Below, one piece after another: positions 11,193-63,585 of a stretch of DNA of 64,000 bases (position 1 is its first letter; each line of letters starts with the position of its first letter). Made by a program: the position numbers and the translations under genes. The notes beneath the pieces are model-generated. The model saw only the letters and a list, made by a program, of their open reading frames with translations. It made no database searches and had not been told where the DNA came from. Source of the stretch: Candidatus Omnitrophota bacterium (lineage in GTDB: Bacteria; Omnitrophota; Gorgyraeia; Gygaellales; JAQTUX01); assembly GCA_028707125.1 (NCBI GenBank), contig JAQTUX010000002.1, positions 272,355 to 336,354 of the forward strand, written 5' to 3'.

Positions 11193-11216
11193 TCCCTTCT
11201 CCTTTCAGTTCTTGAT

Positions 11217-11241
11217 AAATGATACCATAATAGTATCATTT
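11217..11241. promoter_or_regulatory. perfect inverted repeat AAATGATAC-N7-GTATCATTT, candidate Rrf2 operator
   Basis: Seen directly: 9-bp arms around a 7-bp spacer, about 25 bp upstream of the Rrf2 start codon. An AT-rich dyad of this geometry is what Rrf2 regulators typically bind. Confidence 0.5.
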
Positions 11242-11294
11242 GTCAAGAAAAAAATAATTTTATTTAACCGGCAACGCCTGTCTGGGATCACGCG

Positions 11295-14254: not shown

Positions 14255-14397
14255 ATTGAATCTTAAACCCTAAACTCTAAATCCTAAACCCTAAATAAAC
14301 CCAAAACCCAAAATTCCAAACCCAAAACGCTATTGCTTTGTAATTGCGTGTTTTGAGTTTTGTGTTTTGACATTTGAGTTTGTTTAGAGTTTAGTGT
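14255..14397. repeat. long imperfect palindrome of 7-bp units: (AAAYCCT/CCCAAAA)n arm facing a (TTTRGGG-like)n arm
   Basis: The left arm (aaaccctaaactctaaatcctaaaccctaaataaacccaaaacccaaaattccaaacccaaaacgc) reads as CCCTAAA-type heptads. The right arm (gcgtgttttgagttttgtgttttgacatttgagtttgtttagagtttagtgtttagggtttagtgtttt) is its imperfect complement with TTTAGGG-type heptads. It lies between the pgi stop and the lipoprotein start. Confidence 0.8.
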
Positions 14398-15690
14398 TTA
14401 GGGTTTAGTGTTTTCCCTACCCAGCAACTCAAACATATTCTTTTTATATGCCTCAACACCCGGCTGATTAAACGGGTTGACACCCTGTATATACGCCGAT
14501 ATCGCTACCGCCTTTTCAAAAAAGAAAAACAGCGAGCCCAAAGAATACGCGCTTCTGTCGGCAATCTTGATTGACATATTAGGCACGCCGCCGTCCATAT
14601 GGGCCTTCCTGGTGCCCACGCGCGCCTGGTTATTGATAAAACTGAAGCCCTTGCCTTTTATATAGTCCAACCCGTCGATGTTTTTGTCCATGGCGGGGAC
14701 TTTAATTTCCCTCTTGGGCTTTTCTACGGCCATAAAGGTCTCAAACAGGTTCCTCGCGCCCTCCTGTATCATCTGGCCTATAGAATGCAGGTCCGTGGTC
14801 AAAACACACGACGCCGGGAATATGCCTTTGCCCTGTTTGCCTTCGCTCTCGGCGAAAAGCTGCCTCCACCACTCCGCGAGATAATACAGGCAGGGATTGA
14901 AACCGGAAAGTATCTCTATATTTTTTCCCTTACGATAAAGCAGCTGCCTTGCCGCGGCGTACCTGTAGGAAATGTTTTTCTCAAGGTCAAGCGCGGAACA
15001 AAGATCTTTCATATCAGAGCCGCCCCTAAGCAGTTCCCTTATGTCTATCCCCGAGGCGGCCTGCGGCAATAAACCTACGGGGGTGAGCACGGAAAACCTG
15101 CCTTCAACGTCCTGGGGTATGAAAAATTTCCGAAAGCCCTCTGAATCGGCTATCTTCTTCAGCGTCCCCTTTTGCCTGTCCGTTGTGCAGATGATCCTTT
15201 TCTTGAGCTGCCGGCTGGAATACCTCTTCTTCATATAGTTATATATCACCCTGAACGCGGCTGCCGGCTCAAGCGTCGCGCCTGATTTGGAGATCACATT
15301 TACGCAAACATCCCTGCCCTTTAGCCCGTCCAACACATCCTGAAGGTAATCAGCGTCAAGGTTAATGCCGGCAAACACGACCTTAAGCCCCTCAGGGCGG
15401 CAAAATTCCAAAGCAGCCCGCGAACCTAAGTAAGACCCGCCGATCCCTATGACTACCAATACCTCGCTTGTCTCCCGAATCTCTCCGGCGCAATTCTCAA
15501 TATCTCTGATCAGCTCATCAGGCGTATCATCCGGCAGATCAAGCCAGCCCAGGGAAGCCCCGCCTTCCCCGGTTCTGTCGATAAGAAGCTCATGCGCCCG
15601 TTTTACTTCACTGAAAATAGAAGCAAAATCTCTGCCGGATATAAAAGGCGATAAATTACCACAATCTAGCTCTATCCTGGTCTTCGGCAT
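14398..15690 (-). CDS. pgi: glucose-6-phosphate isomerase (short bacterial form)
   Basis: 430 aa with conserved PGI motifs (…GIGGSYLG…, …VISKSGATLE…). Confidence 0.85.
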   Translation of the reverse strand: MPKTRIELDCGNLSPFISGRDFASIFSEVKRAHELLIDRTGEGGASLGWLDLPDDTPDELIRDIENCAGEIRETSEVLVVIGIGGSYLGSRAALEFCRPEGLKVVFAGINLDADYLQDVLDGLKGRDVCVNVISKSGATLEPAAAFRVIYNYMKKRYSSRQLKKRIICTTDRQKGTLKKIADSEGFRKFFIPQDVEGRFSVLTPVGLLPQAASGIDIRELLRGGSDMKDLCSALDLEKNISYRYAAARQLLYRKGKNIEILSGFNPCLYYLAEWWRQLFAESEGKQGKGIFPASCVLTTDLHSIGQMIQEGARNLFETFMAVEKPKREIKVPAMDKNIDGLDYIKGKGFSFINNQARVGTRKAHMDGGVPNMSIKIADRSAYSLGSLFFFFEKAVAISAYIQGVNPFNQPGVEAYKKNMFELLGRENTKP

Positions 15691-31740: not shown

Positions 31741-31836
31741 TTAGCGAAAAGTGTAAAGCGCAAAGCGTAAAACCAAAACTTAAAGTTTAAAGTTTTACAC
31801 TTTAGTTTTGCGCTTTTCGCTTTACGTTTTACGCTT
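31741..31836. repeat. heptad-phased imperfect palindrome (GCGNAAA)n…(TTTNCGC)n, copy A
   Basis: Seen directly: agcgaaaagtgtaaagcgcaaagcgtaaaaccaaaacttaaagtttaaagttttacactttagttttgcgcttttcgctttacgttttacgctt. Shares a 42-nt core (1 mismatch) and a 23-nt block with the element at 50221-50345. Lies between the pfkA start and the ahcY stop. Confidence 0.85.
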
Positions 31837-33102
31837 CTAAGTTCCTTCTTCCCAACTGGAAAGATACTTCTCCTGCTTTGGCGTCAATCTATCCACCCTT
31901 ATCCCCAGGGATTTCAATTTCAAAGCGGCGATGTCTTTGTCTATTTCTTGAGGCACCGAATACACCTTCTTCTCAAGAAAGCTGTAATTCTTACTTATAT
32001 ATTCCGCTGAAAGCGCCTGGTTCGCGAACGACATATCCATGACCGAAGCGGGATGGCCTTCTGCGGCGGCGAGGTTGATCAGGCGGCCTTCTCCTAAAAG
32101 ATATACCCTCTTTCCCGCGGCAAGCGTGTATTCATCCACGAATTCCCTGATCCTGCGTTTCTTCCTTGCCATCTTTTCCAGGTCGGATATGTCTATCTCC
32201 ACGTTAAAATGGCCTGAATTGCATACTATGGCGCCATCCTTCATCTTTTGAAAATGTTCCTTTCTTATTACGCTTATATCGCCCGTGGTGGTCACGAATA
32301 TATCGCCTATGGCGGCGGCCTGCGCGACAGGCATGACCATATTGCCGTCCATTACCGCCTCAAGCGCCCTTAAGGGGTCTGTCTCCACGACTATTACGTT
32401 AGACCCCATCCCCTTAGCCCTCATGGCTACGCCCCTGCCGCAGAAACCGTAACCGCAGACAACAAAGCTCAGGCCGCAGAGGAGCTTGTTGGTCGCGCGC
32501 AATATGCCGTCTATTGTGGACTGGCCGGTGCCGTAACGGTTGTCAAAAAGATGCTTTGTATCCGCGTCATTGACGGCTATGATCGGGTATTGCAGCGCCG
32601 CGTCCTTCTCCATCGCCTTAAGCCGTATTACTCCGGTCGTGGTCTCCTCTGTCCCCCCCAATATCCCCTCAAACGCGCCTCTCTTGTGAATGGTGGAAAC
32701 CAGGTCCGCTCCGTCATCCATGGTTATGTTCGGATTTATGGAAAGCGCCGCGTCAATATGCTTATAATAGGTCTTTGTGTCTTCGCCTTTGATGGCAAAG
32801 ACAGGGATGCGGAAATCCTTCACTAAAGACGCTGCCACGTCATCCTGAGTGGACAGCGGGTTTGAGGCGCAGATCGTAACGTCTGCCCCGCCAATTTTTA
32901 GCGCGTTAGCCAACACGCCGGTCTCAGTCGTAACGTGAAGACAGGCGGCGAGTTTTATGCCCTTAAGCGGCCTCTCTTTTTTAAACCTTTCTTCTATCAG
33001 CCCCAGAACAGGCATATTATTCTTTGCCCATTCTATCCTTAATTTACCCTTTGCCGCTAATCCTAAGCTCTTGACATCATACTTCACTTTAATCCTCCTC
33101 AT
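31837..33102 (-). CDS. ahcY: adenosylhomocysteinase
   Basis: 421 aa with a NAD Rossmann (…[11 protein letters not shown]…) and conserved SAHH motifs. Confidence 0.9.
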
Positions 33103-38858: not shown

Positions 38859-38983
38859 AGTAAAGCAGAACTAAGAATTAAGAGCTAAGAACTAAGATGA
38901 CATCTATGAACCCATCCAAAACAAACAACAAAAAAATTCCCTTTTGCCCCTTAATTTTTTCTTAGTTCTTAATTCTGCCTTTA

Positions 38984-41992: not shown

Positions 41993-42055
41993 GATTTTTC
42001 CCTGAATTTTGCCATTAAGCGGGGATTATCCTCCTTCGCTCATCAAATTGCTAAC

Positions 42056-42099
42056 GATGGTAGAGCTTCGGAGGATTAATCCGCCGAAGCCCTACCATC
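42056..42099. promoter_or_regulatory. 44-bp perfect palindrome GATGGTAGAGCTTCGGAGGATTAATCCGCCGAAGCCCTACCATC
   Basis: Seen directly. The centre is GGATTAATCC, and related GGATTATCC motifs lie at 42023-42031 and 42125-42133, the last overlapping the msbA-like stop. It sits between the msbA-like 3' end and the rpsB promoter and is not followed by a U-run on the transcribed strand. Confidence 0.6.
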
Positions 42100-42127
42100 A
42101 TTTACCCATTGATGTGGCGTAGGCGGA

Positions 42128-48821: not shown

Positions 48822-49511
48822 CTATTTTATCTCCGCGCTCAGTATTACTGCCTCGGCGATCTGCCGCATTGATTTCCTGCTGTCCATTGAATGCCGCTGC
48901 ATTACTTTGTATGCCTCTTCCTCCGACAGCCCCTTCTGCTTCATTAATATCCCTTTTGCCCTTTCAATAAGCTTGCGGCTCTCAAGCTCCTCCTGAATGA
49001 CCTTGGTCTTTACCATCAGCTCGGTATTTTCAATGACCAGAGCCGCCTGGTTTGCCACCGTGGTCAATATCTCGATCTCGCTCTCTGTAAATTTATGCGG
49101 CTTTGAAGTATACAGGTTGAGCGCGCCTATGGCCTTATTCTTGACCATCATCGGGACGCACAAAAGCGACACCAGGCCGTCTTTCCCGGCGATATCTTTA
49201 AACTTGTAGTCCTTGTCTTCAAGGACATTATAGACCGTGCGCGGCTTCTTGCTCAGGACAACCTTGCCTGCCACGCCTTCGCCGATCCTGAGCGGCCCCT
49301 TTTTGTTGTATCCTTCCGAAATTGACTGGGACGCCCTTATGGCCAGCACCTTCTGCTTTTCATCTATCAACATAAGCGAACAGACGTTTGAGCCCATCGC
49401 CTGGGCGGTGACAGTGACGATCAGCTTCAAGATATCCTCTAAATAAAGGTCGGAGGTGATCGCCTTGCCTATCTTATAAAGCGCCTCTATTTTATCCTTT
49501 GTCTGAGCCAT
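48822..49511 (-). CDS. GAF-domain plus ANTAR-domain RNA-binding antiterminator
   Basis: 229 aa; N-terminal GAF-like region and a C-terminal ANTAR helix pattern (…EELESRKLIERAKGILMKQKGLSEEEAYKVMQRHSMDSRKSMRQIAEAVI…). Confidence 0.7.
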   Translation of the reverse strand: MAQTKDKIEALYKIGKAITSDLYLEDILKLIVTVTAQAMGSNVCSLMLIDEKQKVLAIRASQSISEGYNKKGPLRIGEGVAGKVVLSKKPRTVYNVLEDKDYKFKDIAGKDGLVSLLCVPMMVKNKAIGALNLYTSKPHKFTESEIEILTTVANQAALVIENTELMVKTKVIQEELESRKLIERAKGILMKQKGLSEEEAYKVMQRHSMDSRKSMRQIAEAVILSAEIK

Positions 49512-49542: not shown

Positions 49543-50226
49543 TCAATATCTTCCCTTGCAGGCCTTCACACACACCCCGCAGATATACTGGCCGACCAGG
49601 CCGCTGTTTTGAAACTCCTTCAGTTTTTCAAAACAAGCGGTGTGATCAAAATCTTCCCGTCTTTGCTTTATGGCCCCTCGGGGGCAGGCCTGTATGCAGG
49701 CGCGGCAGTCCCCGCAGCCATCCGCGGCCGGGCTGTCCGACTTAAGCGGCATATCGGTAAGAATGGTAACGATCCTGAACCGGCTGCCCAACTGCCTGTT
49801 TACCAGAAGGTTATTCCTGCCGATCCAGCCCAGGCCCGCGAGGTAACCGATCTTTTTATGAGAAAGATGCGCGCTCTGTTTTACCCAATCCAGGATCTGA
49901 GAAGCGGGTATGGGTAACGCGGAAAAACCCCTGCCGGATATCAAACCTGACAGCCTCAATGCAATCTGGTCAAGCATCATATTGACAGCGCGGTAATGAT
50001 GAAAATAAAGTTTGGTGGGGTGGTCTTCTATTTCATCCAGTATCGGCCCTGACAGCGCGGCCCCCAGGCACACAGCCCTGTCTAATTTCTCTAAGACAGC
50101 GGCGGCGATAGTAAATTCATTCTTTACCCCGGATATATCCGCCACGCCGAACAGCCGCGCCCCAAGCTCCATCGCCTTCTCTTTGAGCAGATTGTAATTA
50201 TTCGTAGTATCCATATCACTCAACAA
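49543..50226 (-). CDS. QueG-like (DUF1730 plus 4Fe-4S dicluster) protein, short form
   Basis: 227 aa; …GLGWIGRNNLLVN…GSRFRIVTILTD… resembles the epoxyqueuosine reductase core, followed by CGDCRACIQACP and CGVCVKAC. It is shorter than canonical QueG (about 380 aa). Confidence 0.45.
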   Translation of the reverse strand: MLSDMDTTNNYNLLKEKAMELGARLFGVADISGVKNEFTIAAAVLEKLDRAVCLGAALSGPILDEIEDHPTKLYFHHYRAVNMMLDQIALRLSGLISGRGFSALPIPASQILDWVKQSAHLSHKKIGYLAGLGWIGRNNLLVNRQLGSRFRIVTILTDMPLKSDSPAADGCGDCRACIQACPRGAIKQRREDFDHTACFEKLKEFQNSGLVGQYICGVCVKACKGRY

Positions 50227-50345
50227 ACGTAGAGCGTAGAGCGCAAAGCGTAAAACTAAAACTTAAAGTTTAAAGTTTTTTGTTCTGTAGTTTTAAGCTT
50301 TACACTTTAGTTTTGCGCTTTTCGTTTTACGCTTTTCGCTATCTT
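50221..50345. repeat. heptad-phased imperfect palindrome (GCGNAAA)n…(TTTNCGC)n, copy B; right arm overlaps the mnmG 3' coding end
   Basis: acgtagagcgtagagcgcaaagcgtaaaactaaaacttaaagtttaaagtttt…acactttagttttgcgcttttcgttttacgcttttcgc. Shares a near-identical core with copy A. The segment 50293-50334 encodes the Lys-rich MnmG tail KRKTKSAKLKCKA. Confidence 0.85.
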
Positions 50346-52209
50346 TCAAACCAATCTTCTTAATCCACACCATCAACACCGCGACCGCCGCGGGCGTGAC
50401 CCCGGGTATACGCAGCGCCTGCCCCAGAGACAGCGGCCTTACCCTGCCCAATTTATCCCTGATCTCGCGTGAAAGGCCGTTGAGCCCGTTATAATCCATG
50501 CCCGCCGGGACCTTTATCTTTTCCAGGTGGCGGAAGCGTTCAACCTCCGCCTTTTGCCTCTCGATGAACCCGGAGTATTTCATTTCCGTTTCAATTAAAA
50601 ATGCCGCCCTTTCATCGAGGCGCAAGCCCCGGCAATCCAGCTCCCGTAATCTGCGCAGGTCTATCTGCGGGCGCTTCAGCAATTCCGCGAGCGTAACCTC
50701 TTTTCTCAAGGCCGGGCTGCCGAATGAGTTAAGCTTTGAGTTAACCTCCCGCGTCGGCTTTATCCTGCTTGACATTAGCGCCTCTGTGCCTTCCTTTACC
50801 GCCTTTATTTTATCCCGGGTCTCTCTGTATTCCTCCCTGCTTACAAGGCCGAGCCCAAACCCCATCTCTCTTAACCTTATATCGGCGTTGTCCTCTCTCA
50901 ACAGGAGCCGGTATTCTACCCGCGAGGTAAACATGCGGTAGGGCTCATCAGTGCCTTTTGTGGTAAGGTCGTCTATTAAAACGCCTATGTAGGCCCGCGA
51001 CCTTTCCAATACAAAAGGGCCTTTGCCCTTTACCGTTAAGGCGGCGTTTATCCCGGCGATCAGGCCCTGGGCAGCCGCCTCTTCGTAACCGGTCGTCCCG
51101 TTTATCTGGCCGGCGAGATAGAGATTTTTTACGCGCTTTGTCTCTAAACTTGGCAGATTTTCCCTGGGGTCCACGACGTCGTGTTCTATGCCGTATCCGA
51201 AATCTATGATCCCGGCATGTTCCAGCCCTTCTATGGAATGGACCATTTCAACCTGCGCCTCTTCAGGTAAACTTGTGGATATGCCGTTAGGGTAGATCCG
51301 GTTATCCTCTCTGCCTTCCGGCTCAAGGAAAACCTGGTGCCTCACCCTGTCGGGGAATTTCACTACTTTATCTTCAATGGACGGGCAATAACGCACACCC
51401 GTTGCCTTTATCAGGCCTGTATAAAGAGGCGAATACTTCAGGTTGTCGCGGATGATCTTGTGCGTGCGTTCGTTTGTATATGTTATATAACAAGGCGCCT
51501 GTTTTAATTTAAGCCCCTTATTGGTAAAAGAGAACGGCCTGGGGTCGGCATCGCCTTCCTGGATCTTGAGACGGGAAAAATCTATCGTCGCCTTATCAAG
51601 CCGGGCGCAGGTGCCTGTTTTAAAACGCATGATCCCAAACCCCAGGGACCTCAATGACTCGGATAATCCCATGGCCGCCTCTTCATCCTGCCTGCCTCCG
51701 GGAAAATTCCTCAAGCCTATATGGATCTTGCCTCCGGAGAATGTTCCGGGCGCGATAACAACCGTTTTTGAGAATATCTCTTCATCTTTAGTCCTGACGC
51801 CGTTTACGCTGCTGCCTTTGACCAGCAGGGATATGACCTCCGCCTGTTTAAGGCAGATGTTGCTTTGTTTTCCCAGGGCCTTTCTCATATATTCTTTATA
51901 CCGAAAGCGGTCTATCTGGGCCCGGCTTGACCAGACAGCAGGCCCCTTTGACGCGTTTAAGATCCTGAACTGCAGTCCGCAGGCATCTGCCGCCTTTGCC
52001 ATCTCCCCGCCCAGGGCGTCTATCTCCTTTACCAGCTGGCCCTTGCCTACACCGCCGATCGCGGGATTGCAGGACATATGGCCGATCTGCTCCAATCTCA
52101 AGGTAACCAGCAGGGTATTACAACCCATCCTTGATGCAGCTAATGCAGATTCAATACCTGCGTGCCCGGCGCCGATGACTATGACATCATACATATTATT
52201 TGTCGTCAA
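50293..52209 (-). CDS. mnmG: tRNA uridine-5-carboxymethylaminomethyl(34) synthesis enzyme MnmG (GidA)
   Basis: …YDVIVIGAGHAG… FAD motif and a conserved MnmG body. The ORF-track start is TTG at 52209; a canonical ATG (MYDVIVIG) lies at 52194. Confidence 0.85.
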   Translation of the reverse strand: MTTNNMYDVIVIGAGHAGIESALAASRMGCNTLLVTLRLEQIGHMSCNPAIGGVGKGQLVKEIDALGGEMAKAADACGLQFRILNASKGPAVWSSRAQIDRFRYKEYMRKALGKQSNICLKQAEVISLLVKGSSVNGVRTKDEEIFSKTVVIAPGTFSGGKIHIGLRNFPGGRQDEEAAMGLSESLRSLGFGIMRFKTGTCARLDKATIDFSRLKIQEGDADPRPFSFTNKGLKLKQAPCYITYTNERTHKIIRDNLKYSPLYTGLIKATGVRYCPSIEDKVVKFPDRVRHQVFLEPEGREDNRIYPNGISTSLPEEAQVEMVHSIEGLEHAGIIDFGYGIEHDVVDPRENLPSLETKRVKNLYLAGQINGTTGYEEAAAQGLIAGINAALTVKGKGPFVLERSRAYIGVLIDDLTTKGTDEPYRMFTSRVEYRLLLREDNADIRLREMGFGLGLVSREEYRETRDKIKAVKEGTEALMSSRIKPTREVNSKLNSFGSPALRKEVTLAELLKRPQIDLRRLRELDCRGLRLDERAAFLIETEMKYSGFIERQKAEVERFRHLEKIKVPAGMDYNGLNGLSREIRDKLGRVRPLSLGQALRIPGVTPAAVAVLMVWIKKIGLKDSEKRKTKSAKLKCKA

Positions 52210-52337
52210 TTACCAATTAGCCAATTCCCAAATCCCAATAAATGACCAATTAGTCAATTCCCAATTGGACCTTGGGTAATTGAGCATTTATTTGGCATTG
52301 GTAATTGGTCATTGGAAATTTATTCGGATTTATTATA
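52206..52337. repeat. heptad-phased imperfect palindrome (CCAATTN)n…(NAATTGG)n
   Basis: caattaccaattagccaattcccaaatcccaataaatgaccaattagtcaattcccaattgg / ccttgggtaattgagcatttatttggcattggtaattggtcattggaaatt. Fills the whole mnmG-apgM intergenic space. Confidence 0.8.
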
Positions 52338-53621
52338 TTACTCTTTGGCCAGCTTTACAAGGAGGGGCATGATCTCAACACCCTTGAGCTCTCCGATGCT
52401 GCCTTCTCTGGCTGCCTTCTCCGAGAAGCTCATTGAGCCGTCGGCCTTTATAGGGCCGCCCGCGGTTAAAAGCGGCACGGGGTCAGAGGAATGCGCTTTA
52501 AGTTTACAGGGCGTGGAATGATCAGCGGTCACCGCGATTATGGAATTCTTAAAATCGATATTTTTAAGCAGTTCACTGAAGAAGAACTTATCTATCTCTT
52601 CAATGGATTGTTTTTTAAGCTCGTATTTTCCGTCGTGCGCCGGCTCATCCGGGCCTTTGATATGGATATACAGGGCGTCGTGGGCCTCTATGGCATTATG
52701 CGCTATCTTTGCCCAGGCAGCGTAATCCACATCGCTGTGGCCTGTCCTCTTGGGGACATCCACTATCTTGATGCCTGTGAGAAGGGCGATGCCTTTCTCA
52801 ACCGGCATCTCCACAAATGAACCCACGTTTAAGTTATAAAACGAACCTATAGGGGGAAACTCCGGAAGATGGTCTCCCGCGTCGCGGCTCAAGATAACAT
52901 TACCCGGCATCTTGCCTTCCGAAACCCGCCTCTTATTCACCGCCGAATCATTAAGCGCCTTGATAGATAATCTGGTAAACTCATTTAAAAGCCGCGCTGC
53001 CGTCTGCGCCTCTTTTGAATCCTCGTATCCGGGCATGGGCGAGGACTCCTGAACCTTGTTCTCAAATTTCTCCTTGGCAACGCCAAACACCCCTTCCCTG
53101 TCATACGCCGGGTCTGTATTGGTTAGCCAGCCGGATAATTTAGAACGCATTCCCCTTATGACCAAGACACCCCTATGGCCTATGGTGTTCTTAAATTCAA
53201 ACACGCCTTCAGAAAGCGTGACTTTGGAATTTATCTCTCTGGAAAGCGACGACGCCTCCTCGGTAGTAAGGTTCCTGCCCACCCTTCTGTCTTTTATATT
53301 TACGCCGTCGTCATCCACCGTGGCAAAGTTCACCCTGAATGCCACGTCTCCCGGGTTGACCGCGACGCCCTCCGCGAAACATTCAAGCGGCCCCCTTCCC
53401 GTATAGTATTTGTGCGCGTCATACCCCAGCAGGCTTATGACCGCGATATCCGATTCCGGCGCGATGCCCTTGCCTACCGTATACACAATGCCGGTTCTGC
53501 CCATCTGGGCCAGCCTGTCCATATTAGGGGTAAAGGCCGCCTCAAGCGGTGTCTTGTCGCCGAGTTCCTTGATCGGCAAATCGCCTAAGCCATCCAATAC
53601 TATGTAGAATATCTTTCGCAT
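52338..53621 (-). CDS. apgM: cofactor-independent phosphoglycerate mutase, archaeal type (ApgM family)
   Basis: 427 aa. N-terminal …YIVLDGLGD… metal-binding Asp and an alkaline-phosphatase-superfamily body; size and pattern match ApgM. Confidence 0.75.
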   Translation of the reverse strand: MRKIFYIVLDGLGDLPIKELGDKTPLEAAFTPNMDRLAQMGRTGIVYTVGKGIAPESDIAVISLLGYDAHKYYTGRGPLECFAEGVAVNPGDVAFRVNFATVDDDGVNIKDRRVGRNLTTEEASSLSREINSKVTLSEGVFEFKNTIGHRGVLVIRGMRSKLSGWLTNTDPAYDREGVFGVAKEKFENKVQESSPMPGYEDSKEAQTAARLLNEFTRLSIKALNDSAVNKRRVSEGKMPGNVILSRDAGDHLPEFPPIGSFYNLNVGSFVEMPVEKGIALLTGIKIVDVPKRTGHSDVDYAAWAKIAHNAIEAHDALYIHIKGPDEPAHDGKYELKKQSIEEIDKFFFSELLKNIDFKNSIIAVTADHSTPCKLKAHSSDPVPLLTAGGPIKADGSMSFSEKAAREGSIGELKGVEIMPLLVKLAKE

Positions 53622-53622
53622 A

Positions 53623-55920
53623 TCAACACTTTGTGAATCCGCAGGAAGGACACTTCACGCACCCTTCCTCATGCATAAGCGCGCCTCCACAATCAGGGCA
53701 AACGCCCACTATGGTCGCGACGCGCTTTTGCGCCTGTTGCTCCTCAAACACAGACAGATTGTTGCTAAGGCCGTCGTCTTTTTCTTCTTTGATCTGACCA
53801 TTGACCAGCCGGCGCTCGATCACCCTCGCCATCGCGTCCGCGCAGGAAAATATGCGCACGCCCTTCTCCCAGGAAGGCGAAGGGCAGCGTATGTTCCTTA
53901 GCTGCTCTATAATGGACTTGACCTCTATGCCTGAGCGGAACGCCAGTGATACCAACCTGCCTATCGCCTCAAGCTGGGACGCGGCGCAGCCGCCGGCCTT
54001 GCCCATATGAGTAAAAAGCTCAAACGGCTTACCCTGTTCGTCGGAGTTAATGGTTATGTAAAAATTACCGCAGCCGGTAGGGACCTTCGTGGTCGTGCCC
54101 TGAGTGACCTCCGGCCTGGGGCGGGGAGATATGTCATACCTCTCCTTGGACGCGGAGGCGGGCTGCGCTTTATCCTCGTCTTTCTTTCTGGCTATATTCA
54201 ATACCTGCTCATCCCTGCTTCCGTCGCGATAAATGGTCACGCCTTTGCACCCCAATTTATAGGCAAGCAGATATACCCCTGCCACATCCTTCTCGGCCGC
54301 CCTGTTGGGGAAGTTAACCGTCTTTGAAGTGGCGTTGTCCACGTATTTCTGGAACGCGGCCTGCATCCTTATGTGGAATTCCGGAGAGATATCGTGCGCG
54401 GTGACAAACAGCCGCCTCACGTCTTCCGGCACTTCATTTATATGTTTCACTGAGCCGGACTCCGCCACCTTCTCCATCAGTTGGCGGGAATAAAACCCGC
54501 GCTCCTTGGCGGTCTCTTCAAACAAAGGATCGACCTCAACAAGCTTATCATTATCCATAACGTTGCGGTAGTAACTTACCGCGAATAACGGCTCGATACC
54601 GGAAGAACAGGGCCCGGCTATAATGCTTATCGTGCCCGTCGGGGCGATAGTGGTCAGGGTGGCGTTGCGCTGCCTGTTAGCCGCCCCGCCTTTTGCGTAA
54701 AGCGCGCTGCCTATAAACGCCGCGAATGCCCCCCGTTCTTCGGCCAGCATCGCCGACTCGGCCCTTGACTCGTTGGCGATAAAAGCCATCACGGTCTCGG
54801 CAAGCTGCAATGCCTCCTCGGAATCATAAGGTATACCTAATCGTATCAATAATGTGGCCCATCCCATGACACCCAGCCCTATCTTCCTCGTCAGTTTCGT
54901 ATTCTCTTCTATCTGGGGCAGGGGGAATTTATTGATGTCTATGACATTATCAAGAAAATGCACTGCCCCGCGCACAGTTACGCGCAGCCTCTCCCAGTCA
55001 ACCTCGCATCTGCCGCTTAAAGAATCCTTCTTATATAATCTGGCCAGGTTGATGGATCCCAGATTGCAGGACTCATAGGGCAAAAGCGGCTGCTCTCCGC
55101 ATGGGTTGGTGCTTTCAATGCTGCCTATGTTTGGGGTAGGGTTGTCTTTGTTGATATTGTCTATGAAAACGATCCCGGGCTCGCCGTTCTTATGCGCCTG
55201 CTTTACGATCAGGTCAAATACCTTTTTTGTGTTAAGGCGCCCTGCCGTCTGTTTTGTGCGCGGCTCTATAAGGTCGTAGTCCTCGCCGTTTTCAAGCTTC
55301 TTCATGAAATCGTCTGTAAGCGCGACCGAAATATTAAAATTTGTGATGTCTTTATCGCTCTCCTTGCAGGCGATAAACTCAAGGATGTCCGGATGGTCAA
55401 CCCTTAATATGCCCATATTCGCCCCGCGCCGGGACCCCCCCTGCTTGACTGCCTGGGTCGCGGCATCGTATACCTTAAGGAACGATACGGGGCCGGAGGC
55501 GATGCCTCCGGTGGACCTCACCACGCTGTTTTTAGAGCGCAGTTTGGAAAAGGAAAACCCCGTGCCGCCGCCGGATTTATGTATTAAACTTGCCGCTTTC
55601 AACGTCTCAAAAATTGACTCCATTGAATCCTCAATAGGAAGCACAAAGCAGGCGGAAAGCTGGCCCATATCCTTGCCGGCATTCATCAGGGTCGGCGAGT
55701 TAGGCATAAATTCCAAAGCGGACATCGCGGAATAAAACTCTTCCTCTGTCCTCAAGATCTCTTCCGGCGGCCTGCCGTATAGAACGTCTGCCGAGGCAAC
55801 GGCGCGCGCCACCCGCCGGAACATCTCTTCAGGGGTCTCAACACACCTGCCCGAAGGATCCTTAACAAGGTATCTTCTGTTCAAAACTTTGAGCGAGTTC
55901 TCCGAAAGCTCAAGCGGCAT
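53623..55920 (-). CDS. nrdJ: adenosylcobalamin-dependent ribonucleoside-diphosphate reductase (class II, NrdJ)
   Basis: 765 aa with class II RNR N-terminal allosteric/ATP-cone-less pattern (…LKVLNRRYL…). Catalytic Cys/Asn/Glu loop (…NPCGEQ…, ligands Cys, Glu). C-terminal Cys pairs (CPDCGG…CVKCPSCG). Confidence 0.85.
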   Translation of the reverse strand: MPLELSENSLKVLNRRYLVKDPSGRCVETPEEMFRRVARAVASADVLYGRPPEEILRTEEEFYSAMSALEFMPNSPTLMNAGKDMGQLSACFVLPIEDSMESIFETLKAASLIHKSGGGTGFSFSKLRSKNSVVRSTGGIASGPVSFLKVYDAATQAVKQGGSRRGANMGILRVDHPDILEFIACKESDKDITNFNISVALTDDFMKKLENGEDYDLIEPRTKQTAGRLNTKKVFDLIVKQAHKNGEPGIVFIDNINKDNPTPNIGSIESTNPCGEQPLLPYESCNLGSINLARLYKKDSLSGRCEVDWERLRVTVRGAVHFLDNVIDINKFPLPQIEENTKLTRKIGLGVMGWATLLIRLGIPYDSEEALQLAETVMAFIANESRAESAMLAEERGAFAAFIGSALYAKGGAANRQRNATLTTIAPTGTISIIAGPCSSGIEPLFAVSYYRNVMDNDKLVEVDPLFEETAKERGFYSRQLMEKVAESGSVKHINEVPEDVRRLFVTAHDISPEFHIRMQAAFQKYVDNATSKTVNFPNRAAEKDVAGVYLLAYKLGCKGVTIYRDGSRDEQVLNIARKKDEDKAQPASASKERYDISPRPRPEVTQGTTTKVPTGCGNFYITINSDEQGKPFELFTHMGKAGGCAASQLEAIGRLVSLAFRSGIEVKSIIEQLRNIRCPSPSWEKGVRIFSCADAMARVIERRLVNGQIKEEKDDGLSNNLSVFEEQQAQKRVATIVGVCPDCGGALMHEEGCVKCPSCGFTKC

Positions 55921-62405: not shown

Positions 62406-63585
62406 CCAGATAGAATGTAGCTCCCTCTGGATTCACATCCAGGTTTGTTGACCAGACAAAACCCCCTAATATATAGGAAAGGTCTTTGCCCTTCAGGTCT
62501 ATGGTATATTGCTTCCATTCCGTGCTGAGCATGACCGGGCCTATGCCGGCGACATCGGAATCGGAATATTCATTACTGACACCGCCTACCTTAAATTCCT
62601 CGATCCTCTCGGTGCCCTTCTCGCCGCGCGCCCAGAAGGTAAGCTTTGTGGCGTTGGAAAGGTCAAAGCCGGCGTCAATAGTGCCCCAGTTGTTAGCGGG
62701 GTTAAGCCAGTAAACGCCTACCCAACGCTGCCCCTTGGTCGCCTTGTTGCTGTAAACCACCTTTATGCAAGTATCCCCGAGGTAGGGGTTTTCCCTGGAA
62801 TCGTTGACAAGCATTACGTCTTCGGAGCTGTAATCGCCCATGTAACCCGAAGGCACAAAATGATTATTCAAAGACGACTTATCGGTATAGACATAAAACG
62901 GCATAACCTCCTTATTCCTGGTCTGCGGCTTAATGTTGGGGTCAGCGACATATTTTATGTCATCAAGATAAAACACAACTCCGTTGGGAGACAGGTCGGT
63001 ATTGGCAACCCAGCAAAACCCGCCGGCTATAGAGGTGAGGTCCCTGCCCGCCAGGTTTATGGCGTACTCCTTCCAGGTGTTGGTCAATTCTATGGGGCCT
63101 GACTCCACCGTGGCGGAATCAGGATACAGCCCTTTGATCCCGCCGACGACAAACTTCTGGATGATCTCGCCGCCCTTCTCGCCGCGCGCCCAGAAGGTAA
63201 GCTGGGTCATGCCGGTCAGGTCAAATCCGCCCTTCTTGGTCCCCCAGTTGTTCGCGGGATTCTGCCAGTAAACGCCTGCCCAACCCTCATTCTCCGGGGC
63301 ATACGACACCTTTACACAAGTGGTGCCGGAACGCGGGTTATCCATACTGTCTTCCACAAGCTTGACTACGCGGCCTATAACGGAGACCGTCTGGTTATCG
63401 CCCATATAACCGGAAGGTATGTAATGGTTATCCGGGGAATTTTTGTCCGCGTAGACATTGAATGTCTTGTAGCTTGCCGCTTCGTCTTTCAGCGCCGCCG
63501 CGCCTTCTTCGGCAGCGCGGACTGGATCCGGCGCGGAAACCGAAACCGCGAGAAACATAGACAACGCAACTGCTAAAAACTTCAT
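62386..63585 (-). CDS. secreted protein composed of two tandem copies of an uncharacterised ~170-aa beta-rich domain (candidate carbohydrate-binding module)
   Basis: 399 aa with a signal peptide. Repeat 1 (YADKNSPDNHYIPSGYMGD…GVYWQNPANNWGT…LTFWARGEKGGE…FYLDDIKY) and repeat 2 (YTDKSSLNNHFVPSGYMGD…GVYWLNPANNWGT…LTFWARGEKGTE…FYLDEIKYE) align end to end. Confidence 0.55.
   Translation of the reverse strand: MKFLAVALSMFLAVSVSAPDPVRAAEEGAAALKDEAASYKTFNVYADKNSPDNHYIPSGYMGDNQTVSVIGRVVKLVEDSMDNPRSGTTCVKVSYAPENEGWAGVYWQNPANNWGTKKGGFDLTGMTQLTFWARGEKGGEIIQKFVVGGIKGLYPDSATVESGPIELTNTWKEYAINLAGRDLTSIAGGFCWVANTDLSPNGVVFYLDDIKYVADPNIKPQTRNKEVMPFYVYTDKSSLNNHFVPSGYMGDYSSEDVMLVNDSRENPYLGDTCIKVVYSNKATKGQRWVGVYWLNPANNWGTIDAGFDLSNATKLTFWARGEKGTERIEEFKVGGVSNEYSDSDVAGIGPVMLSTEWKQYTIDLKGKDLSYILGGFVWSTNLDVNPEGATFYLDEIKYE

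Follow-up and report, generated by a model that had tools for sequence, protein, structure and literature searches.

A palindromic repeat of seven-nucleotide units encodes the last residues of MnmG in an Omnitrophota bacterium

In the stretch of Omnitrophota DNA analyzed here (64,000 nucleotides, referred to below as the window), the mnmG reading frame ends inside an imperfect palindrome that is also found elsewhere in the window, raising the question of whether the lysine-rich end of the encoded protein belongs to the enzyme or to the repeat, and of how it came to be translated. The features needed to answer it were as follows.

50293..52194, minus strand: coding sequence of mnmG, starting with the ATG at 52194 and comprising 633 codons and the TAA at 50293-50295, with a TIGR00136 match over residues 2-613.
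50296..50355, minus strand: C-terminal tail of MnmG, 20 residues (IGLKDSEKRKTKSAKLKCKA) beyond the MnmG family model, AlphaFold2 pLDDT about 46-50.
50293..50340, minus strand: repeat-derived part of mnmG, 15 codons (SEKRKTKSAKLKCKA) and the stop, forming the sense-5′ arm of copy B, from inverted-repeat search and alignment of copies A and B.
50228..50340, no strand: copy B, imperfectly palindromic and composed of 7-nt units in tandem (AGCGNAA, then AACTAAA/ACTTAAA), from inverted-repeat and tandem-repeat analysis.
31743..31836, no strand: copy A, a non-coding member of the family, with a hairpin of -36.4 kcal/mol (z = -3.6).
49543..50214, minus strand: QueG-related 4Fe-4S gene downstream of mnmG, assigned from synteny and a TIGR00276 match of 76 bits, which is under the cut-off.

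The open reading frame of mnmG spans 50293..52209 on the minus strand, and its translation ends in ...IKKIGLKDSEKRKTKSAKLKCKA (also given as ...MVWIKKIGLKDSEKRKTKSAKLKCKA), followed by the TAA. The product was identified as MnmG because its 833 bits exceeded the 524.85-bit cut-off of the TIGR00136 equivalog, residues 2-613 corresponding to profile positions 1-614 of 616, and is 100% identical to a Candidatus Omnitrophica MnmG of 633 aa at NCBI, with the start at the ATG at 52194. No obvious Shine-Dalgarno sequence was seen for mnmG. The last 20 of the 633 residues, of which 40% are Lys or Arg, were unmatched by the profile. The match to the E. coli MnmG structures (3CP2, 3CES, 9HIP) stopped at ...KKIGL, 17 residues ahead of the window stop, and E. 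coli MnmG has 5 residues beyond the equivalent point. An AlphaFold2 model built from 36 sequences continued the last helix through the tail, but at the pLDDT listed above. Among the 120 best homologs, nearly all from Omnitrophota, the conserved core ends in ...LMVYL(K/R)(K/R), and the tail past the L-K/R-K/R motif has a median length of 5 and a mode of 3 residues, reaching 20 residues or more in 4 of the 120; no tail resembling SEKRKTK was found in any of them. The tail is not part of the MnmG enzyme family core. The earlier note had expected the last ~15 residues to be unique to this protein, and they were; the same Lys-rich end on an MnmG whose gene lacks the repeat, which would have spoken against its reading, did not appear among these 120 homologs.

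Copy B has arms at 50228-50274 and 50292-50338 (47 nt, 79% complementary, 17 nt apart), its outer boundary being uncertain by 1-2 nt, and the region of its center (50275-50291) includes about 22 nt absent from copy A. Copy A occupies the 101-nt spacer from the ahcY TAG stop (31837-31839) to the pfkA ATG (31735) and is therefore non-coding. Over 52 nt, the two copies share 90% identity in both arms. With up to 3 mismatches allowed, a 35-nt probe taken from the coding arm matched the 64-kb window at copies A and B only (0 matches in 100 shuffles), and a degenerate 27-mer matched the window at exactly four places, the arms of the same two copies; two copies of this AGCGNAA-family element were counted within the 64-kb window. 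When copy B was aligned with copy A, with the boundary at 50340, the codons supplied by the element ran from AGC to GCT (50296-50340, 15 residues) plus the TAA; the residues KD and everything upstream of them in MnmG do not come from the repeat. The arm of copy B that lies to the right on the plus strand forms the 5′ side of the hairpin when read in the mnmG sense. The earlier note had placed this right arm inside the mnmG frame, encoding the Lys-rich tail before the stop, and had described the repeat as shared with a non-coding copy A. The reading-frame and inverted-repeat analyses agreed on the first point, and the identity of the arms and the position of copy A in the ahcY-pfkA spacer confirmed the second. 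Its proposed extent, 50293-50345, was correct in that the arm encodes both tail and stop, but has to be shortened at its upstream end, where the repeat-derived part stops at 50340 and leaves KD outside.

The ATG of the QueG-like gene (50214) lies 13 nt past the end of copy B, and with downstream ATGs 7-13 nt past the elements there is no space for a promoter. A scan covering copy B found no canonical intrinsic terminator (short GC-rich stem-loop followed by a U-tract) there. The window (1-64000) has an extreme strand bias: only two of its roughly 65 long open reading frames are on the plus strand, and neighboring frames overlap or are separated by very little. A gene of 229 aa at 48822-49511, between the QueG-like gene and a response regulator, is missing from the corresponding place in the syntenic relative L001.

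No MnmG relative above 75% identity was present in the collections searched, and a metagenome scan returned only relatives of 64% identity or less and no near-isogenic empty site. Look-ups for an exact match to the window MnmG gave no record. The mnmG 3′ ends of relatives that lack the repeat, to which the earlier note had pointed as a test, were compared at this distance. L001, with an MnmG of 75% identity, is syntenic with the window over ribonucleotide reductase, apgM, mnmG, the QueG-like Fer4 gene, response regulator and NadE; its MnmG ends in ...LKRRQEREDKRS, and the stop is followed by a 38-nt spacer that contains no palindrome and no period-7 repeat. In four further relatives (L037-L040, 61-64% identity), the mnmG stop overlaps the QueG-like ATG by 8 nt (ATGTCTAA or ATGGATGA). 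Since the mnmG-QueG junctions of relatives are tight or overlapping, the 113-nt palindrome is a derived addition. The checks that the earlier note had put forward all favored its reading. ‘Precise excision’ of 113, 114 or 115 nt from the window locus gave KDFVE-stop, an in-frame fusion or KDC-stop, a result that depends on the boundary chosen and was set aside as evidence.

One relative has a repeat of its own at this site. In L117, the mnmG gene (homolog P0065, 63% identity) ends with a 20-residue tail, INPKSETLNSKQTRNPKSKT, and runs 17 codons into another heptamer palindrome (AAATCCG / CTCTAAA units), located, like copy B, in the spacer that precedes the QueG-like gene. This palindrome (-32.5 kcal/mol, z = -4.3) belongs to the same family as a window palindrome at 14259-14413. 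L117 is an independent second MnmG case, and the mnmG-QueG site has been filled independently by two repeat families. Elsewhere in this neighborhood, the ribonucleotide reductase upstream of apgM is 765 aa long in the window (53623-55920) and about 1150-1177 aa in two relatives (L001, 5081-8536, and L118), where it carries LAGLIDADG and intein domains; this genome seems to lack the intein.

The distribution of the element was assessed by scanning a 27-nt arm pattern over GTDB species representatives, one genome per species, a set that does not contain the source genome. The pattern matched 35 stretches (L002-L036), for which the chance expectation was roughly estimated in this analysis at well under one. 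The AGCGNAA family was found in at least 30 other genomes, mostly of Omnitrophota, several of them with 2-4 matches, and about 26 of the matched stretches are full palindromes with the same arm order, AGCGTAAAGYGCAAAGCGMAAAGCGYAAAACTAAAACTTAAA, then a loop, then the complement. Carriers outside Omnitrophota, as labeled, are several Atribacterota, Parcubacteria/Patescibacteria (with 3 copies in Parcubacteria GW2011_GWA2_47_21), an uncultured gammaproteobacterial MAG in which 3 contigs carry the element, and a Sedimentisphaerales MAG. Such sharing of a non-coding element of about 100 nt across phyla could reflect transfer, convergence or binning error. A short GC-rich hairpin was seen at the apex of the palindrome in several members (L036, L013, L019, L023, L007 and L008), and the presence of the same apex insert in L019 and L023, which come from one genome, suggests that the composite element was copied.

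Gene stops that face the element mostly lie between -13 and +5 nt from its start and downstream start codons are 5-25 nt away; one copy follows a tRNA. Four genes run 25-48 nt into the arm: window mnmG and the genes in L009, L036 and L025. The proteins of these three stretches and of L021 were identified by eye from their sequences, with no family search. In L009, a protein resembling the gamma subunit of 2-oxoacid:ferredoxin oxidoreductase ends in ...LKSEKRKAKM; in L036, a protein resembling endonuclease III ends in ...KFRRKVQSAKRKTKT (...KVQSAKRKTKT); in L025, a protein resembling an epimerase ends in ...KLKARSEKL; and in L021, the first heptamer supplies the stop and the final two codons of a gene whose protein resembles GpmA. 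The motif S-E/A-K-R-K-T/A-K recurs on unrelated enzymes, and the tail is therefore dictated by the repeat.

The explanation preferred here, to which a probability of roughly 0.8 was assigned, is that a dispersed AT-rich palindrome came to lie at the junction of mnmG and the QueG-like gene, that the ancestral mnmG stop is gone and translation reads 15 codons into the repeat, and that the tail is a neutral by-product rather than an adaptation. A repeat of about 95-115 nt, with arms of degenerate 7-nt units (AGCGNAA...AACTAAA ACTTAAA), would have been placed at the junction; with the ancestral stop lost, ribosomes must read on for 15 codons into the A-rich sense-5′ arm until the seventh heptamer offers the first TAA in frame (GCT TAA). 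A 7-nt period puts each TAA triplet in a different frame from the one before; of the first four heptamers, three (AGCGAAA, AACGAAA and AGCGCAA) contain no TAA, and that of the second is out of frame, so the frame stays open for 15 codons. As the arm is A/G-rich, any read-in gives a Lys/Arg/Ser/Glu-rich and probably disordered tail, which MnmG would tolerate because its C-terminus beyond the last helix is naturally variable. Lys and Arg are favored at bacterial C-termini (PMC7246954), and this tolerance of Lys/Arg-rich ends, together with the variability of MnmG C-termini, suggests that the tail is neutral. That the arm has been taken up into the gene does not make it functional: nothing indicates selection on the tail.

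The element probably arrived by insertion, rather than mnmG having lost its stop beside an element already in place. The second order of events, in which the palindrome already lay just downstream of mnmG and the stop was then lost or a small frameshift arose in the last codons, agrees with the usual layout of the family, where the stop lies within a few bases of the element start and copy A begins 1-2 nt past the ahcY stop, and also with the out-of-frame TAG across the mnmG/copy B boundary (GA TAG CG), which resembles the copy A junction TAG-AAGCG. However, the genes of relatives overlap or nearly abut where the element is absent, so an insertion is required anyway, and stop loss and direct insertion, distinguished solely by which step came first, arrive at the same arrangement as seen today. 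Stop loss beside a resident palindrome was rated as somewhat unlikely.

Copies A and B are two of five palindromes in the window, each made of 7-nt units in tandem, with a TRF period of 7 in every case; the five draw on four unit vocabularies. The other three are listed here.

14259..14413, no strand: heptamer palindrome of a second family (CYCTAAA), whose sense-5′ arm holds the stop and final 4-5 codons of pgi (14398..15690).
52207..52320, no strand: heptamer palindrome (CCAATNA type) in the apgM-mnmG spacer, with a palindrome at the same place in L001.
38867..38976, no strand: heptamer palindrome (AGAAYTA type) between tRNA-Leu and tRNA-Gly, from palindrome and tandem-repeat analysis.

The window contains seven period-7 segments and none of period 5, 6, 8 or 9; in all fetched DNA, a set ascertained in part through the heptamer pattern, 141 period-7 segments were counted against 5-26 at other periods. 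The elements are 95-155 nt long with 33-34% G+C, in a window of 51% G+C, and form long hairpins with a mismatch about every seventh base and the A-rich arm first on either strand. At least two ordered families (AGCGNAA... and CYCTAAA...) recur across genomes. Their sites are flush with stops and a few bases ahead of the following start, within operons as well as between tRNA genes.

The apgM-mnmG palindrome occupies the same site in L001 but has drifted in sequence, and its retention there argues for the persistence of some elements. A promoter-like TTGTAA-17-TATAAT straddles the apgM stop (window 52332-52360) and is conserved in L001 (9862-9905); given this conserved site, the palindrome at 52207-52320 may belong to a 5′ leader of mnmG and not to a spacer that is read through. 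Three other structured or repeated segments of the window were noted. A 20-nt perfect-like palindrome at 11209-11249 (TTCTTGATAAATGATACCAT / ATAGTATCATTTGTCAAGAA) overlies a strong promoter-like TTGACA...TATCAT in a 102-nt spacer and is operator-like. A GC-rich hairpin with 40-nt arms at 42041-42114 (GATGGTAGGGCTTCGGCGGATTAATCCTCCGAAGCTCTACCATC), just upstream of a promoter-like site, differs in kind from the heptamer palindromes, matched nothing in Rfam and is a possible terminator. A 153-nt direct repeat of 76% identity (62577-62729 and 63135-63287, 558 nt apart) lies within coding sequence and is probably an internal domain duplication.

The strong period-7 structure and the presence of at least four heptamer vocabularies in one window raise another explanation, in which the palindromes grew locally by heptamer slippage and hairpin-templated repair and copies A and B are alike through gene conversion or convergence on favored heptamers. 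The drifted palindrome at the apgM-mnmG site of L001 fits such growth, as do the heptamer SSR pairs of Xanthomonas, which have no association with mobile elements (PMC4692102). Against it, copies A and B are about 90% identical over both arms, including the order of the differing heptamers, and the same ordered sequence occurs at unrelated loci in many genomes, sometimes with shared inner inserts (L019 and L023), which is hard to obtain by independent growth. Local growth was considered unlikely on these grounds.

It is more doubtful still that the Lys-rich tail is a selected functional extension, serving as a tRNA-binding charge or improving expression or stability. MnmG belongs to a family known to bind tRNA, the tail has the basic composition given above, C-terminal Lys is linked to higher expression in bacteria (PMC7246954), and two Omnitrophota MnmGs have independently acquired hydrophilic tails from repeats. 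Yet the same peptide occurs on unrelated enzymes that read into the element, the tail is conserved in no homolog, lies beyond the family model and is predicted with low confidence, and the coding arm retains the canonical repeat sequence. A basic tail on an enzyme that binds tRNA could nevertheless have some effect. An assembly or annotation artefact, in which a mis-join or collapse at the repeat created a false 3′ end, was regarded as extremely improbable: assembly errors do tend to occur at repeats, and the sequence comes from a MAG, but the gene order flanking copy B matches L001, copy B lies on a 510-kb contig and the NCBI protein is identical, and the same configuration occurs with another repeat in the independent assembly of L117. 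The preferred reading therefore remains that of a repeat placed at the junction and read as a neutral tail.

What the elements themselves do was approached through folding, sequence variation and database comparison. On the mnmG sense strand, copy B folds into a weak hairpin (-30.8 to -34.2 kcal/mol, z = -2.0; antisense, -48.2), and its greater stability antisense is a poor fit to a simple sense-RNA hairpin role at this copy. Among the window palindromes, copy B folds better antisense and palindrome E3 better sense, and A, E1 and E5 fold equally on both strands; an asymmetry of G-U pairs between strands, considered as a sign of a role at the RNA level, was inconsistent among them and was dropped. 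The family alignment gave 9 consensus pairs with no compensatory changes, the fifth heptamer base being the periodic mismatch. Since a 7-nt unit with a TAA moves the stop by one frame at each repeat, selection of the A-rich arm for stops in all three frames was considered and rejected: 116 of 174 frames were closed within 45 nt, where shuffled sequences predicted 111.7, and 11 of 58 arms had all three frames closed, where 13.1 would be expected. Rfam gave no match at gathering or E-value thresholds, only generic long-hairpin (miRNA precursor) matches far below threshold. Comparison with viral, plasmid and phage sets (IMG/VR, PLSDB, INPHARED) produced no element match, although the BLAST low-complexity filter may hide matches. 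The flanks of copies A and B and of 24 other copies shared no direct target-site duplication, and no transposase or RAYT gene was identified.

The position of the elements suggests, tentatively, that they act as REP-like intercistronic RNA hairpins flush with stops, blocking 3′ exonucleases or serving as a processing site, and perhaps delaying termination at the gene upstream. In E. coli, REPs within 15 nt of a stop can slow termination (Liang, Rudd and Deutscher 2015, as summarized in PMC12306157). The earlier note had likened the mnmG extension to the uptake of a MITE or REP insertion; the tail is indeed repeat-derived, but the element is neither a classical REP nor demonstrably a MITE, being an AT-rich tandem-heptamer palindrome. 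With the REP/BIME sequences of enterobacteria it shares the form of a repeated imperfect palindrome, extragenic near gene ends, that lies between cistrons or 3′ of co-directional genes, typically a few bases from the upstream stop, and is transcribed within the operon. REPs, however, are 20-40 nt long with a short GC-rich stem and a conserved GTAG head, whereas the present elements measure 95-155 nt, have about 34% G+C and consist of tandem heptamers. They end in AGCG...CGCT, with GTAG occurring only in the degenerate outer heptamers of copy B, and copy B overlaps coding sequence, which REPs seldom do. As in a MITE, terminal inverted repeats are present, the whole element being an inverted repeat, but a target-site duplication is missing.

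Cyanobacterial STRR repeats are heptamers. Heptameric SSR arrays in inverted pairs have been described in Xanthomonas (GGGAATC) and Nostoc (GGGGAYT); those of Xanthomonas lie mostly between co-directional open reading frames within 50 bp of a stop, sometimes overlapping it (PMC4692102). Hairpin sites of five heptamers are known in Geobacter metallireducens (PMC2700814). The present elements share with such SSRs the inverted paired arrays and the retention of type at orthologous sites while length and sequence drift, and, like the Xanthomonas pairs, they have tandem 7-nt arms and lie between co-directional open reading frames no more than 50 bp from a stop or start. The known heptamer SSRs, in contrast, are G-rich, have been studied as G-quadruplex formers and are each found within one genus. 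The heptamers described here are A/T-rich with a GCG or CC clamp, their units (AGCGNAA, AACTAAA, CYCTAAA and CCAATNA) lack the G-runs needed for a quadruplex, several vocabularies occur per genome and one ordered sequence extends across phyla.

Repeats that lengthen the 3′ ends of genes include enterobacterial RU/ERIC, pneumococcal RUP/BOX/SPRITE and Bordetella BRE (PMC3184786, section 15). In these, in the Rickettsia palindromic elements and in the present case, the repeat is translated in frame and gives C-terminal residues and a stop. Unlike the small mobile repeats, the present element showed no signature of terminal inverted repeats with target duplication, and no autonomous partner was seen; the Rickettsia palindromic elements insert internally and are kept in frame, whereas here a terminal arm alone is read. 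In stop-loss or de novo C-terminal extensions (PMC4494051), too, downstream non-coding DNA becomes a new C-terminus up to the next in-frame stop, but the DNA recruited here is a repeat, which by its composition fixes in advance a hydrophilic, Lys-rich peptide, and the event recurs with this peptide in unrelated genes. The MnmG tail looks like a harmless by-product, of which other bacterial repeats already offer examples, rather than a new function. As a coding overlap it is ordinary; the repeat class is of more interest than the tail.

Taken as a class, the AT-rich heptamer palindromes may be an undescribed, conserved, REP-like group of Omnitrophota, Patescibacteria, Atribacterota and a few other uncultured lineages that acts in the processing or stability of mRNA and tRNA precursors or is spread by an unidentified mobilization system, the Lys-rich tails of MnmG and of the Nth-like, PFOR-gamma-like and other proteins being its footprint in the proteome; this proposal was rated at somewhat short of even odds. 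For annotation, the last 15 residues of the window MnmG should be read as repeat-derived and not as enzyme, and similar Lys-rich ends on other proteins from Omnitrophota and CPR MAGs should be read in the same way, with differences in tail length among orthologs in Omnitrophota and CPR being in part repeat footprints. The mnmG locus adds a documented case of a non-coding repeat becoming a protein C-terminus, here one that is recurrent and predictable from sequence. These compact genomes keep long heptamer hairpins exactly at stop-start junctions, and the occurrence of one ordered sequence across phyla points to a conserved post-transcriptional role or an unrecognized mobile element.
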